Notes under the pieces: generated by a model
The model's database searches: none
The model's input: only the letters and a program-made list of their open reading frames with translations
Told to the model about the DNA's origin: nothing
Made by a program: the position numbers and the translations under genes
Assembly (NCBI RefSeq): GCF_024298765.1
Contig: NZ_CP101210.1
Direction: 5' to 3' (one strand)
From: Escherichia coli
Lineage (GTDB): Bacteria > Pseudomonadota > Gammaproteobacteria > Enterobacterales > Enterobacteriaceae
Length of the DNA stretch: 64,000 bases
Shown here: positions 10,651 through 14,980 of the stretch, piece after piece
Numbering within the stretch: position 1 is the first letter of the stretch
Layout: each line of letters starts with the position of its first letter

Positions 10651-10672
10651 TATAATGGGTCCCTAAACACAT
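10628..10672. other. attL junction of the mdtG-borne element
   Basis: The sequence reads host ...ggtattgtcttc, then AG, then element tataatgggtccctaaacac. The arm TCCCTAAACAC (10660-10670) is the inverted partner of GTGTATTTAGGGA at 14933-14945. Confidence 0.75.
10651..10656 (+). promoter_or_regulatory. Consensus -10 hexamer TATAAT at the extreme left end of the element, upstream of the recombinase gene
   Basis: TATAAT lies 34 nt upstream of the ATG at 10690. No good -35 is visible in either the integrated or the reconstructed circular context. Confidence 0.3.
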
Positions 10673-10689
10673 CATTTTAGGTATTGAAT

Positions 10690-12219
10690 ATGAGACGGGC
10701 AATCAGCTACATCAGATTTTCAAGTGAACGACAACTAAAAGGGGACTCTGTACGCAGACAATCTAAGCTGGTCACTGACTGGCTTGATAAGAACCCTGAG
10801 TTTTACTTGGATTCATCCTTGAGCTTTAAAGATTTGGGGAAAAGTGCTTTTAGTGGTAAGCACTTGAAAGGTGGCTTAGGTGACTTTTTAACCGCTATCG
10901 AGAAAGGGCTTGTTAAAGCTGGTGATACACTACTAATCGAGAGTTTAGACCGTCTCTCACGTCAGGATATTGATATTGCTTCTGAGCTATTACGTCGTAT
11001 CTTAAGGGCTGGTGTAGATATAGTCACACTGAGCGATGGTGAACATTACACACGAGAAAGTTTAAAAGACCCGTTATCCCTGATTAAAAGCATTCTGATA
11101 ATGCAGCGGGCGCATGAGGAAAGTCTGAGGAAGTCTGAGCGTGTCCAAGCTGCATGGAACCGTAAAAAAGAACTCATCTCCGAAGGTATCAAGGTATCTA
11201 GGCGTTGTCCTGCATGGTTAAGGCTGAATGATGACCGTCGAACATTCACTATCATCCCCGATAAAGTGGAAGTTGTTAAACGAGCATTTGACCTGAGATT
11301 ACAGGGTTTAAGCTTTTGGGCTATCACCAGAACTTTAAACGATGAAGGCCACTTGTCATTGAATCAATACACACCTAAACAAAAGGGATGGTCTGATACT
11401 GCTGTAAAGAAACTACTCAGAAATCGTGCTGTGATTGGATGTTTCACACCTGCTGGACGTGAAGAAGTTCAGGGTTACTACCCCGCAATAATCAGTGAGT
11501 CACTATTCTATCGAGTACAGCAACTGAACACAGGGCAATATGGTAGGGCTTCTGTATCAAGTAATCCGCTATCAGTCAACTTGTTCAGGGGTATCATCAA
11601 ATGTTCTGAGTGTGGGGCTACTATTGTTCTTGGTGGATATGCCTTAAAACGTTTTGGGATGTACAGATGCCCTAATCGTTCAGCTAACAGGTGTAGTGCA
11701 AAGGCTATCAGTCGTAAGCAAACGGATACAACTATCCTTTACATGCTCGCATTATGCGACCGTTTTGAAACTGAAAATACTGACACTATTGATAGCCTTA
11801 AATTACAGCGTGAAGATTTGCAGCGTAAAATCTCAAAAATGGCAGAACTCGCTATTGAACTCGATGACATGACAATTATCACAGAGAAATTACGTGATAT
11901 GAAGAATGCGCTATCAAAACTCAATCATGATATCGAAGAGGAAACAAAGCGGATAAAGGCCATCACAACTGGAAGCCTCAAAGATATTGACAGGACAACA
12001 AAGGAAGGGATGATAGAGACACAGCTACTTATCAAGGGCGTACTCAAAGAAATAGTTATAGATGCCGCTAAACGTCGCTGTAAAGTGACTTTTCACAACG
12101 GTAAGGTAATTGACCTACCTATAACAGAAAACCCCTCAGAGGACGTTACAGAGGCCATACAGTCGCTTTCTGAAGTCACTGAGAGGGGTTTAATAGATGT
12201 TGATGTAGTAGCGATTTAG
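10690..12219 (+). CDS. Large serine recombinase (integrase), 509 aa from the ATG
   Basis: ORF track 10684..12219. The N-terminal catalytic domain has AISYIRFSSERQ and ESLDRLSRQ motifs. It is followed by a recombinase domain, a Cys4 zinc ribbon (CSECG...CPNRSANRC) and a long coiled coil (LKLQREDLQRKISKMAELAIELDD...). Confidence 0.9.
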   Translation: MRRAISYIRFSSERQLKGDSVRRQSKLVTDWLDKNPEFYLDSSLSFKDLGKSAFSGKHLKGGLGDFLTAIEKGLVKAGDTLLIESLDRLSRQDIDIASELLRRILRAGVDIVTLSDGEHYTRESLKDPLSLIKSILIMQRAHEESLRKSERVQAAWNRKKELISEGIKVSRRCPAWLRLNDDRRTFTIIPDKVEVVKRAFDLRLQGLSFWAITRTLNDEGHLSLNQYTPKQKGWSDTAVKKLLRNRAVIGCFTPAGREEVQGYYPAIISESLFYRVQQLNTGQYGRASVSSNPLSVNLFRGIIKCSECGATIVLGGYALKRFGMYRCPNRSANRCSAKAISRKQTDTTILYMLALCDRFETENTDTIDSLKLQREDLQRKISKMAELAIELDDMTIITEKLRDMKNALSKLNHDIEEETKRIKAITTGSLKDIDRTTKEGMIETQLLIKGVLKEIVIDAAKRRCKVTFHNGKVIDLPITENPSEDVTEAIQSLSEVTERGLIDVDVVAI

Positions 12220-12263
12220 TATCTCTTATTAGGATTCACTGAGTACTTTTTAAGCTTTGAAGC

Positions 12264-12307
12264 TACCCGACCAGCGTTACTGTTAGCATTGGTGAGGTTG
12301 GTTTTTT
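12264..12307 (+). terminator. Candidate intrinsic terminator after the large recombinase gene
   Basis: The imperfect stem ACCCGACCA...TGGTGAGGT (alternatively CCGACC/GGTTGG with a G-U pair) is followed by TTTTTT. Confidence 0.45.
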
Positions 12308-12482
12308 CAGCTTCTTCACAAAAAAGCTTCAGAGGTCTTCTTAACCATCCGCTAAGCAGGAGAGAGGGTGGTACATGAGAAAGAACCCTCACTTCTAAAA
12401 AGATTTTTTAGCTATTTTGCTTAAAACCATATCAAAAGATACATTTTATTGATTCAGGTCAAAGACAAAAGCATTGACAAAA

Positions 12483-12580
12483 TGGTAAAATTGTTCACAT
12501 GACCTTACTTAACAGACTTTTTAAGAGCTTTTGAGAAGCTTGTTGAACAGACACTCTTTCTGGAGTGTTGTCTTTTACTT
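12483..12580 (+). ncRNA. Hypothetical sRNA-like transcription unit of about 80 nt (promoter to terminator)
   Basis: An extended -10 TGGTAAAAT (12483-12491) is followed by the terminator-like hairpin ACAgACACTC tttctg GAGTGTTGT and CTTTTACTT (12547-12580). This is a prediction from sequence only. Confidence 0.2.
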
Positions 12581-12934
12581 AAGAGGTTTGTTTAGATAAC
12601 TCTCAAGGCATCTCTTAAGAATCACTGTTAAGGTGATACTCTCCCTTCGGGTTATATCGTATCTCTTCTCCCGTTAGACAGTTTTTCCTAGCAACTTCAT
12701 AGTTATCTGTCAAGTGCCTTTGAAGATTCCATCAAGACCTCTGAATCTGACCTGATATAGATGCTGTGAAGGCATATTCTCTAGGTCTGTGTAGCTTACT
12801 TAGTGGGAAGAGAGGGATATAGTGACCATAGGGGAACCCCTCCTGTTAAAAAGACTACTTAGAAGTCTGAGACTTTAGTAAAATCTGTGAATATAGCTTC
12901 TCAGACGCTCTGTAACGCATTCTAAGCGATTTTA

Positions 12935-12953
12935 CCACCTTATTTTAAGGTGG
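12935..12953. other. Perfect 7-bp hairpin CCACCTT-atttt-AAGGTGG
   Basis: Read directly from the sequence. It is immediately followed by the second copy of GGGTGGTACAT (12952-12962). Confidence 0.6.
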
Positions 12954-13206
12954 GTGGTACATCCCTATAGGTTACCCTAAAAATGGGGTTAAAACTCGCT
13001 ACAGAGCTTTCTATGAGGCTTGGTAGAGTTGCATAAATTTTACACAACACTTATTCAGCTTCTAAATTTTTTTATAAAAAATCGTAGTAACCCCTCTACA
13101 TTCCCCTTCACCGATAATCTTCAAAAATATCTATCACAGGTCTATACCTGCTAAGTACCCGTCACTACGCCTAAGTGGTCCCCTTTGCAAAATTTTAAAA
13201 TATCTA

Positions 13207-13233
13207 TTGACTTTTTATGTGAACTGTTATAAA
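13207..13233 (+). promoter_or_regulatory. Candidate sigma-70 promoter reading toward the small recombinase
   Basis: TTGACT (13207-13212), a 15-nt spacer, and the extended -10 TGtTATAAA (13225-13233). Confidence 0.4.
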
Positions 13234-13303
13234 GACCGCTCCATCTCTTAGGCATACCGTTATAGCATACTAAAAAGGTATAGCTAACCCCCTGTAAAAA
13301 CCA

Positions 13304-13345
13304 TACCGATTAGCCTTGTAAAACACTTTATCGGTACATTATACT
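13304..13345 (+). promoter_or_regulatory. Inverted repeat overlapping the proximal promoter of the small recombinase (res-like or operator candidate)
   Basis: TACCGAT (13304-13310) and ATCGGTA (13330-13336) are separated by 19 nt. They overlap TTGTAA (13316-13321), an 18-nt spacer and TATACT (13340-13345). A related ATACC-N18-GGTAT lies at 13254-13281. Confidence 0.4.
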
Positions 13346-13380
13346 CAACTCATCAAATGAGTAAGGCAAATGAGTATATT

Positions 13381-13926
13381 ATGGCTAACATTGGTTATAT
13401 CCGAGTTTCATCAATCCAGCAGATTACAGACCGTCAACTTGAAGGGGTCGTACTGGATAAGATATTTACTGATAAAGCATCTGGGAAGAATACAGACCGT
13501 CCACAACTAAAGGCTATGCTCGATTATGTTCGTGAAGGTGATGTTATCCATGTACACGACTTGTCACGTTTAGGGCGCTCTACCGTGGATGTATTAACGC
13601 TGGTGGATAAACTTTCACAGAAAGGTATCAAGGTTCACTTTCACAAAGAAGGTCTGATAACTGGTGACGATAACCCCACGTCTAAGATGATTCTCACAAT
13701 CTTTTCAGCAGTGGCTGAAGCTGAACGTAAAATGATGCTTGAGCGTCAACGAGAAGGCTATGAAGCTGCTAAAGCTGCTGGTCGTGTAGTTGGAAGGGGT
13801 AACGGTAAAGCGGTTGACAGAGAAGGTATTAAAGCTGCTCTTGCTGCTGGTGGTTCAATCGCTAAAGTAGCCGCTCAATTCAACGTTGCCAAGTCAACTG
13901 TACAGCGTATTAAAGCTGAAGATTAA
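13381..13926 (+). CDS. Small serine recombinase of the resolvase/invertase family (181 aa; alternative start at 13357 gives 189 aa)
   Basis: MANIGYIRVSSIQQ carries the catalytic Ser. The protein also has DLSRLGRS and AERKMMLERQREG motifs and a C-terminal HTH (SIAKVAAQFNVAKSTVQRI). The layout matches gamma-delta/Tn3 resolvase and Hin/Gin. Confidence 0.9.
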   Translation: MANIGYIRVSSIQQITDRQLEGVVLDKIFTDKASGKNTDRPQLKAMLDYVREGDVIHVHDLSRLGRSTVDVLTLVDKLSQKGIKVHFHKEGLITGDDNPTSKMILTIFSAVAEAERKMMLERQREGYEAAKAAGRVVGRGNGKAVDREGIKAALAAGGSIAKVAAQFNVAKSTVQRIKAED

Positions 13927-13939
13927 GTCAGGAAATACA

Positions 13940-14623
13940 TTAGATTTTTCTTCCAAATAAACTTGGGAGATTCTTACGGTTTCTTGCTTGCATCATTATT
14001 TCTGGGCTAACAAGTTTTTTTAATTCGCTTCTGTACTCATCAATAGAACACTCATCCGCAACAAGTTTTGAAATCAGGTCTTCAATAGACATAACATCTT
14101 GTTGCAGGAAATCAAGTTCACGAGACAAGTGCTTTTTTTGATTCTCTAACTTTCCTATCTCAGCATTTAAGTTATCTACATCTGTCGCCAATTTCTCTGC
14201 CTGAGATTTCAAATTACTTGTATCTTCTTTTTCTCTTTCGATAAGGTTTTTTTGTTTCTCAATCTTCAACTTTGACGTCAGTCTAGCTGACTCTTCAAGA
14301 TTTTCAGCTTCTACTTTTTGTCTTGCTCGCCATGCGGTTGCCTTGATTTGAAGTAGTGTTACAAGGTTGCTGAAGTAAGGGAAAAAGGTCGCCAAAATGA
14401 ACCCTAGCCCTACGGGATAGCATAATGTTTTTAGATAGAAGTCTTCCGTCGATGTGATTTGTTGAATACGAGTAACAACCGAAGCCTCACTAAGACACAT
14501 GATAGCAATGCTTTTCCAGTTAAATCCCACCCATGACAAAATGATGTAGCCCCATAAAGGGTTAGCTACTCGTTCCTTCAACGCCTGCTTAACTGATTCC
14601 GTGATACTTTCTTCACTACTCAC
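13940..14623 (-). CDS. Hypothetical protein with two TM segments and a coiled coil (227 aa)
   Basis: The GTG start is preceded by GGAG 8 nt upstream. Hydrophobic segments are PLWGYIILSWVGFNWKSIAIMCL and LCYPVGLGFILATFFPYFSNLVTLL. A charged heptad-like region of about 110 aa follows (EAENLEESARLTSKLKIEKQKNLIEREKED...). I do not recognise the family. Confidence 0.7.
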   Translation of the reverse strand: MSSEESITESVKQALKERVANPLWGYIILSWVGFNWKSIAIMCLSEASVVTRIQQITSTEDFYLKTLCYPVGLGFILATFFPYFSNLVTLLQIKATAWRARQKVEAENLEESARLTSKLKIEKQKNLIEREKEDTSNLKSQAEKLATDVDNLNAEIGKLENQKKHLSRELDFLQQDVMSIEDLISKLVADECSIDEYRSELKKLVSPEIMMQARNRKNLPSLFGRKI

Positions 14624-14893
14624 AATTACTGCTCCATAGAAAACTCTGGTTTGAGAAATTTTAATGCGAATCCAATCAGTTAGATAGACCTGTAAATAGC
14701 AATTTTATAGAAGTCGAGAGAGGGATGACTAACACCCTGCATAGTTTCCTGAAAAGAGACTTCGCATATTATCTATATATTTCAATAAGTTATGCTAAAA
14801 AGGAACTATACCAATACTGCATAGATTCTGCGTAAAACTGCTTGGATACTTGGAAATCCACCATTAAATTGCATAGTCATTCACCTGATAAAG

Positions 14894-14908
14894 CCTGTTA
14901 TTAACAGG
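14894..14908. other. Perfect 15-bp palindrome CCTGTTATTAACAGG near the right end of the element
   Basis: Read directly from the sequence. It is nested within TCACCTG (14881-14887) and CAGGTGA (14905-14911). Confidence 0.6.
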
Positions 14909-14932
14909 TGATAGGATTCGGATGTTCTCATA

Positions 14933-14980
14933 GTGTATTTAGGGAATTAATATCAGCATTACATTTTTATTTTCGGCCAT
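14933..14980. other. attR junction of the mdtG-borne element
   Basis: The sequence reads element GTGTATTTAGGGAATTAATATC, then AG, then host cattacatttttattttcggcc, which resumes MdtG as (S)[15 protein letters not shown]. Confidence 0.75.

Follow-up and report, generated by a model that had tools for sequence, protein, structure and literature searches.

The chromosome of Escherichia coli contains, in a 64-kb stretch of contig NZ_CP101210.1 (hereafter, the window), a small serine recombinase gene preceded by inverted repeats, and the question raised by this locus is whether these repeats are the site at which the encoded protein acts. An earlier note on this DNA had proposed that they form a cognate res/operator arrangement overlapping the recombinase promoter. 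We examined the 175 bases before the gene and compared them with loci fetched for this purpose (labelled L0xx). The geometry of the repeats, the relatedness of the protein, the layout in its homologues and the single copy of the sites all support this proposal. Judging from these comparisons, positions 13254–13364 are probably the cognate multi-site, res-like binding region of the adjacent 181-amino acid (aa) resolvase-type recombinase, with the gene-proximal promoter (P2) inside it. The arrangement itself, namely a resolvase gene with its own multi-site res and an embedded promoter, is ordinary for this enzyme family, and the lineage is uncharacterised.

Anatomy of the res-like region and the adjacent recombinase

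The features of the region are as follows.

13254–13281: candidate site I, a 28-bp imperfect palindrome, ATACCGTTATAGC-AT-ACTAAAAAGGTAT; homologous 28-bp sites occur in L009, L011, L012–14 and L016
13282–13302: spacer between sites I and II, 21 bp
13303–13337: candidate site II, 35 bp, ATACCGAT-N19-ATCGGTAC, with perfect 7-bp arms and a –35 box in its centre
13316–13345, plus strand: candidate proximal promoter P2, with –35 TTGTAA at 13316–13321, an 18-nt spacer and –10 TATACT at 13340–13345
13341–13364: candidate site III, 24 bp, ATACTCAAC...AATGAGTAA, with half-sites ATAC/TTAC + TCA, adjoining the gene
13369–13377: an extra right-half-like repeat, AATGAGTAT, beyond site III
13381–13926, plus strand: small serine recombinase, 181 aa, similar to the Tn3 and gamma-delta resolvases, with a C-terminal helix-turn-helix (HTH)

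The half-sites were placed in a common register in which the base before TAC is the outer end, and the six of them read ATACCGTTA, ATACCTTTT, ATACCGATT, GTACCGATA, ATACTCAAC and TTACTCATT. The arms of site I match at 10 of 13 positions, and the AT at 13267–13268 is its exact centre. Only three bases separate sites II and III. The candidate sites thus span 13254–13364 with a layout of 28/21/35/3/24 bp (111 bp in total), in which the smallest site is gene-proximal. All the motifs listed in the earlier note were found upstream of the gene, including ATACC-N18-GGTAT at 13254–13281, TACCGAT-N19-ATCGGTA at 13304–13336 (flanking the –35 of the proximal promoter) and TTGTAA-N18-TATACT at 13316–13345. 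Two positions needed correction by one base: of the direct repeats, CATACCGTTATAGC begins at 13253 as reported and CATACCGATTAGCC at 13302 rather than 13301, and the near-palindrome AGGTCTATACCT occupies 13138–13149 rather than 13139–13150.

Site III had not been noticed previously. It contains a 15-bp palindrome, ACTCATCAAATGAGT (13348–13362), and two copies of CAAATGAGTA are found with an offset of 13 nt (13354 and 13367). It is weaker than sites I and II, having only (A/T)TAC-TCA in common with the others, and is not clearly present in L012–14. Its geometry was inferred by comparison with Tn3, and it is the weakest part of the res model. In a consensus scan with 16–18-nt spacers, P2 was the only plus-strand promoter-like match adjoining the gene; its –35 box lies in the centre of site II and its –10 box in the left half of site III. 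Promoter-like matches as such were not enriched in the region (7 against 4.2 ± 1.9 expected).

The protein has 181 aa when counted from the ATG at 13381 (the RefSeq start), and an in-frame upstream ATG at 13357 would extend it to 189 aa. Pfam assigned its catalytic domain to Resolvase (2.8e-37), and the HTH_7 match (1.7e-4) was slightly under its cut-off; the residues of the recognition helix are AKSTVQRIK. The nearest solved structures are the Tn3 and gamma-delta resolvases (E ~5e-31, full length), followed by Gin invertase (1e-23) and Sin (~1e-18). The equivalents of R8, S10, R68 and R71 are present and invariant in the homologue alignment; the protein therefore has the catalytic domain with Ser10 and the conserved Arg residues, plus the C-terminal HTH, of a small serine recombinase.

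The res of Tn3 comprises 114 bp with three dimer-binding sites of 28/34/25 bp, a 22-bp linker between sites I and II and 5 bp between sites II and III; compared with the site III spacer, that of site I is longer by 3 bp and that of site II by 9 bp (PMC9943657). Tn3 site III adjoins tnpR, crossover takes place at the central TA/AT of site I, and because promoters lie inside res the resolvase autoregulates; one site serves for both recombination and repression (PMC7157771). The window resembles this system in its full-length alignable protein and in having several candidate dimer sites directly upstream of the gene, with location, order of sizes and geometry alike. Site I is 28 bp long with a palindromic central dinucleotide AT, the I–II spacer is 21 versus 22 bp, site II is 35 versus 34 bp, candidate site III is 24 versus 25 bp and the total is 111 versus 114 bp, with a promoter, here a predicted one, embedded in both. 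The half-site consensus in the window, ATACYNNTW, is also of the same form as the TGTCYNNTA of Tn3.

There are differences from Tn3 as well. Its half-site sequence and its R-interface residues are not kept (see below), site III is weak, the extra direct half-site at 13369–13377 is present here, and the I–II spacing is not conserved in the closest homologues (29–32 bp). The host of the module is an island of the kind integrated by a large serine recombinase, and its only other genes encode that recombinase and a 227-aa protein; the DDE transposase gene tnpA is absent from this island, and no flanking inverted repeats, such as the ~38-bp terminal ones of Tn3-family transposons, were found around the module.

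Chance expectation and homologous loci

We compared the occurrence of the repeats in the window with that in shuffled sequences. TACCGAT-N15–23-ATCGGTA occurs once in 64 kb and in none of 100 dinucleotide shuffles, and RTACC-N18-GGTAY occurs once in the window, against 0.08 expected, and in 8 of 100 whole-window shuffles. We further performed a blind search to which the proposed sites were not supplied: all pairs of palindromic sites (24–36 bp each, 10–40 bp apart) in the 220 bases before the start codon were scored by the mutual similarity of their four 9-nt half-sites (sum of pairs, which replaced a strict four-way identity statistic). The optimum was exactly 13254–13281, a 21-bp gap and 13303–13337, with a score of 40 out of 54, compared with 34.9 ± 1.7 in dinucleotide shuffles, of which 1 in 200 reached 40. 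As a positive control, the region upstream of a Tn21-type tnpR (from a P1 derivative) gave a 28/23/33 arrangement, which could not be confirmed as the published sites, with a score of 35, within the range of its shuffles. The blind test thus has low power on degenerate real sites.

Homologues were collected by a scan of one genome per species. The relatives of the recombinase share 96% identity in Citrobacter and 52–65% in Enterobacter, Yokenella, other Enterobacteriaceae, Pseudomonas and an Alcaligenaceae bacterium. Upstream of the 52–65% homologues we found 28-bp and ~31–35-bp sites as in the window, but with lineage-specific half-sites. For example, L012–L014 carry GTAGCGATTAAGC-AT-CCTTAATCGCTAC (28 bp, central AT) and, ~30 bp further on, GTAGCGAT-N15-ATCGCTAC; the half-sites are of the GTGTGCA type in L016 (in 28–30-bp and 33-bp sites), GTAGTGAT in L011 and GTTGCAA/TTACAAC in L009. 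The centre of site I is AT also in L008 and L012–14, TC in L009 and AG in both L011 and L016. An inner motif of site II that bears the –35 box, (A/T)GCCTT(G/T), recurs in homologues. Counted from the ATG, the –35 of the best sigma-70-like match falls at –64 to –69 and the –10 at –41 to –47 in seven homologues, inside and just after the second site, and the promoter position is shared by L008, L011, L013, L014, L016 and the plasmid L093. In place of a clear site III, L012–14 have two direct right-half repeats before the start codon, the pair in L013 being analogous to the CAAATGAGTA pair of the window.

The same blind test gave scores of 51 for L012 and 46 for L016, compared with ~33–34 ± 2 in shuffles, and none of 200 shuffles reached either value. 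The homologues turn a signal that is moderate in the window alone into a strong one. Half-sites that vary with the protein lineage while layout and promoter position remain fixed are as predicted for a cognate binding site. In the Yokenella locus L012 (~2975–2995, –65 to –45 from the start codon), ACGCTAC is repeated three times in tandem directly after the second site, which moves the sites 15 nt farther from the gene and eliminates a recognisable promoter.

Sites I and II occur in one copy each in 10 out of 10 loci with an orthologue, including a complete 11.4-kb element (within a 29.5-kb stretch), and in 0 of 84 other fetched loci. No second copy of either site was found in the window in any orientation. 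With one copy per element, an inversion switch is disfavoured; the data fit a resolvase that represses its own gene and acts only when two copies arise, as in dimers, concatemers or cointegrates. The recombinase with its upstream region is present in only 28 of 5,426 complete E. coli genomes.

We computed the fraction of variable columns among nine orthologous loci. It was 16% in the res segment, compared with 8% at first and 26.5% at third codon positions of the gene, 56% in the 90 bases directly upstream of the segment and 97% directly after the stop codon. No substitution falls in the half-sites of site II or in the right half of site III; most lie in the I–II spacer and the site centres. 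The sharp edges of variability indicate that res and gene move as one unit (~13238–13928, ~690 bp). This compact cassette occupies the cargo position of a decayed satellite-like island, described in the last section. The DNA after the recombinase stop codon is unrelated among the orthologous loci; it holds the gene of the 227-aa protein here and elsewhere two other unknown genes (L088 3224–4968) or none.

Proposed action of the recombinase and competing explanations

From these data we infer protein binding, repression, recombination and a biological substrate as follows. Recombinase dimers would bind the 28-bp crossover-type site I, which is gene-distal, and the 35-bp accessory site II, and probably also the 24-bp site III next to the gene. 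As these sites overlap both boxes of P2 (–35 in site II, –10 in the left half of site III), their occupancy would repress the gene, resulting in autoregulation. Two directly repeated copies, such as those in dimers or concatemers of an excised replicating element or in plasmid cointegrates, would be resolved by crossover at the central AT of site I.

Several observations weigh against this interpretation. In the window alone, the signal of the two-site pattern is moderate, in agreement with the cautious grading of the earlier note, whose pattern is real yet only moderately above chance there: a stricter count of columns identical across the four half-sites was not significant (44 of 300 shuffles reached it). 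Half-site columns were not significantly more conserved than centres and spacers among the nine orthologues (7/54 versus 11/57 variable, p = 0.44), the divergence of the orthologues being too shallow for such a contrast, and the low variability of res could partly reflect a recent spread of the cassette. Three orthologues have a weakened –10 in P2 (TATACT to TACACT). The I–II spacer is 29–32 bp in L012–14 and L016 (52–55% identity; second sites of 31–33 bp), compared with 21 bp here, so that the near-match of the latter to the Tn3 spacing may be coincidental. The chromosome has one copy only and therefore offers no standing substrate. Lastly, the alignment indicates that the regulatory (R) interface of Tn3 resolvase is not kept (R2 to A, R32 to K, K54 to Y, E56 to R), and D67 of gamma-delta is Ser in the 181-aa protein, as it is in L012–L015. 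A Tn3-type synaptosome is thus not to be assumed, and the assembly of the accessory dimers cannot be deduced from Tn3.

Some of these observations would be expected if the region were an operator only, with the recombinase as a domesticated regulator that represses its own promoter, and possibly read-through from a distal promoter, and performs no recombination here. The single copy per element and chromosome, the lack of conservation of the R-interface residues, the conserved position of the promoter in sites II and III and the large serine integrase already present in the element would all agree with this. However, the catalytic residues are intact and conserved across the homologues, and site I, a 28-bp palindrome centred on AT some 50 bp before the promoter, would be needless for a pure repressor and is nevertheless kept in homologues. 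Moreover, Tn3 resolvase combines both roles in one site, so that the two roles are not mutually exclusive. We regard a purely regulatory role as unlikely.

Still less probable is that the inverted repeats arose by chance in AT-rich promoter DNA and bind no protein. The half-sites are short, one of the two shuffle statistics was not significant, and a bona fide Tn21-type res performed no better than shuffles in the same low-power test. However, the blind search picked the exact geometry, site II has no counterpart in shuffled sequences, and diverged homologues keep the layout with their own half-sites at very high significance.

Similarly improbable is a self-mobile cassette, in which the small recombinase would insert or excise its own ~0.7–2-kb circle at the cargo position of the host element. 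This would explain why variability jumps at both ends of res plus gene, why other elements have no cassette at that junction and why an unrelated small recombinase cassette with TGTCTATA-type repeats occupies the same junction (~13238) in L005; there are also circular ~2-kb records that bear only a homologous recombinase gene. However, site I is intact, 16 bp inside the left boundary, and not split between the ends as crossover insertion requires. No obvious half-site-like sequence follows the stop codon, the ~2-kb circles may be plain small plasmids, and homologous recombination in the flanking backbone explains the swapping equally well.

An invertase of the Hin/Gin/Pin/Cin type, for which 13254–13281 would be one crossover site of an inverted pair around an invertible segment, is hardly credible: invertases are common among the small serine recombinases of prophage-like DNA, the C-terminal HTH is a shared feature and the top NCBIfam match is to the Mpi master invertase family, but this match is weak (70.7 bits versus a cut-off of 272), solved resolvases match better than Gin, several sites adjoining the gene are a resolvase rather than an invertase layout, no long inverted repeats flank a segment at the locus, and the reading was rejected since the second site is absent from the 64-kb window and from the complete elements.

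The preferred interpretation of a res-like region is also consistent with the resolvases of small plasmids. The nearest relatives beyond the element family (55–65% identity) are located on 2–5.5-kb enterobacterial plasmids and have analogous repeats and the same promoter position upstream, the difference being that the module here is chromosomal, in a defective integrated element. Multimer resolution is the usual role of such enzymes on small plasmids. In addition, ~2-kb circular records from E. coli and Salmonella (L093 = NZ_CP116175.1, 1,985 bp; NZ_AP027492.1; NZ_CP130129.1) have as their sole annotated gene a recombinase homologue of 59% identity, with GTAGTAAT-type repeats and the same promoter position upstream, and their remaining 1.4 kb is unannotated. 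The Sin/beta-type res, with two sites, a direct-repeat accessory site and HU/IHF, is similar in having fewer or differently arranged accessory sites, and the pair of right-half repeats in direct orientation close to the start codon is reminiscent of site II of Sin, which is itself a direct repeat. However, the protein match is far more distant (~1e-18 versus 5e-31 for Tn3), and sites I and II here are inverted repeats.

The finding itself changes little, in that it adds one more resolvase lineage with a new ATACCGAT-type half-site. Nevertheless, it provides a clean example of a half-site that follows the protein lineage within a constant layout, and a possible source of an orthogonal pair of small serine recombinase and site. 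It also marks the recombinase cassette as accessory cargo, and the surroundings are more interesting than the site itself.

The host island and its non-coding arm

The features of the surroundings are as follows.

10651–14956: island of ~4.3 kb, AT-richer, inside mdtG, with TCAG at both junctions
10684–12219, plus strand: large serine recombinase, 511 aa (Pfam Resolvase + Recombinase + Zn_ribbon_recom)
12394–13234: conserved non-coding backbone, ~840 nt, part of an element family; its core (13049–13234) has partial homology to a large Felixounavirus intergenic region
13207–13233, plus strand: distal promoter candidate P1, TTGACT, 15-nt spacer, extended –10 TGtTATAAA; outside the promoter scan with 16–18-nt spacers
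13940–14623, minus strand: 227-aa protein with N-terminal hydrophobic segments and a coiled coil, variable cargo 3΄ of the small recombinase
L004 17304–28700 and L005 5279–16597: full-size copies of the element

The island splits the efflux gene mdtG, whose N-terminal part ends near 10654 and whose C-terminal part restarts at 14943. It is a decayed, stripped remnant of a family of ~11.5-kb elements that integrate by a large serine recombinase, and the 511-aa protein is presumed to be its integrase. Members of the family are inserted in yecE (for example, a full-size copy in NZ_AP027599), near yciI/kch, near ymdF, next to lafU (beside truncated flhA, in the lateral-flagellar region) and in mdtG. 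Full-size members contain a large serine recombinase at one end, a Dit-like tail protein, a tape-measure protein, several unknown genes, an HNH nuclease, often a Dam methylase, 1–2 kb of non-coding DNA and optional cargo. The reduced 4.3-kb form is common to only six genomes. Of the Dit-like gene, the copy in the window retains only the final 32 codons, and of an internal intergenic region only a 58-nt piece. An internal deletion made by the resolvase was considered and rejected; the joints lie at 12315–12394, ~900 bp from res. The 227-aa protein matches PHROG families of unknown function; for this protein and the neighbours in L088, PADLOC gave weak coiled-coil matches only, and NCBIfam gave no match above the cut-off.

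The Dit-like gene is 85–87% identical in nucleotide sequence to a Felixounavirus gene, and the tape-measure protein shares 30% aa identity. Sequence similarity of this kind suggests that the ~11.5-kb family is a satellite-like parasite of Felix-O1-like lytic phages, which is a lead, not a result, and does not change the reading of res. A literature search for a described satellite of Felix-O1-like phages or for the ~11.5-kb family found nothing within the literature covered, and a scan of IMG/VR with a motif from the core returned only two prophage-sized contigs, which were uninformative. We give only a small chance to the extension of this lead in which the res–resolvase pair is exchangeable cargo directly downstream of the phage-derived control region of apparently undescribed satellites of Felix-O1-like phages, acting on replicating satellite DNA during helper infection or moving itself, and not serving a transposon or plasmid.

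Two motifs that the earlier note had assigned to the recombinase module belong to the backbone. The near-palindrome AGGTCTATACCT lies within it and is not conserved among the elements, and it was dismissed as a functional motif and treated as chance. The distal promoter, TTGACT-N15-TGTTATAAA at 13207–13233, is present as described, and its –35 is kept even in relatives without the recombinase (L006, L007). P1 faces the cargo position, and about five bases separate its –10 from the junction (~13238) at which backbone gives way to cassette. P1 is thus not the operator-bearing promoter of the small recombinase; it may drive whatever cargo is there and read through res. L005 (15860–16597) has another small serine recombinase (35% identical) at this backbone junction, beginning a few bases beyond the P1 –10 and accompanied by 34-bp TGTCTATA...TATAGACA repeats of its own that resemble the Tn3 consensus. 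The junction looks like a cargo hotspot with exchangeable recombinase cassettes, some members being without a recombinase.

The two recombinase genes of the island are separated by 1.1 kb without annotated genes. Of 5,426 complete E. coli genomes, 540 (~10%) contain the arm at 12394–13234, where it bears no annotation. Its core (13049–13204) aligns at 74–77% with part of a 1.66-kb gene-free Felixounavirus region (L095 1946–3607) that is packed with CTTAACAG/CTAACAAG repeats. No k-mer or iteron enrichment was found in the window copy of the arm. A scan of the island against Rfam (E ≤ 1) gave a spurious NRON match only, and ARAGORN found nothing in 12200–13400. RNAalifold predicted long-range invariant helices in the arm, with a covariation contribution of only –1.86 kcal/mol on 8 sequences. 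The arm may be a replication origin (ori), a packaging (pac) site or a phage-responsive control region.

Smaller features were also observed in the arm. TTAACAG occurs at 12509, 12625 and 12843 and, together with a shared block GGTCACTAYCTCT..CTTATCGTTCCCTT, is found in satellite-like elements. A ~160-nt segment (12863–13025) has a 70–94% identical inverted paralogue in full-size elements (L005 11851–12014, minus strand; L088 116–234, minus strand), which lies between the HNH gene and the next gene and ends at the ribosome-binding site of the latter. The segment folds well (z = –4.7, minus strand), and its main stem is not kept in the paralogues; it may take part in antisense or immunity-type RNA regulation or be a packaging site. 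Inside it, a 43-nt stretch, TATAGCTTCTCAGACGCTCTGTAACGCATTCTAAGCGATTTTA (12890–12932), has a ~90% identical counterpart in intergenic DNA close to the genome ends of T5-like Salmonella phages (Epseptimavirus), and Pantoea and Erwinia phages share 28 nt of this stretch without mismatch. A conserved rightward promoter-like site (12462–12491; AAGACA, 18 nt, TGgTAAAAT) lies at the left edge of the arm and is followed ~60 nt downstream by a terminator-like hairpin (12550–12569), the sequence of which varies by element subgroup. Finally, many E. coli genomes, including many sequence type (ST)-related genomes, carry inside the arm a gene for a 174-aa AP2-domain protein (L007 9572–10096), which is possibly an insertion of the homing-endonuclease type.

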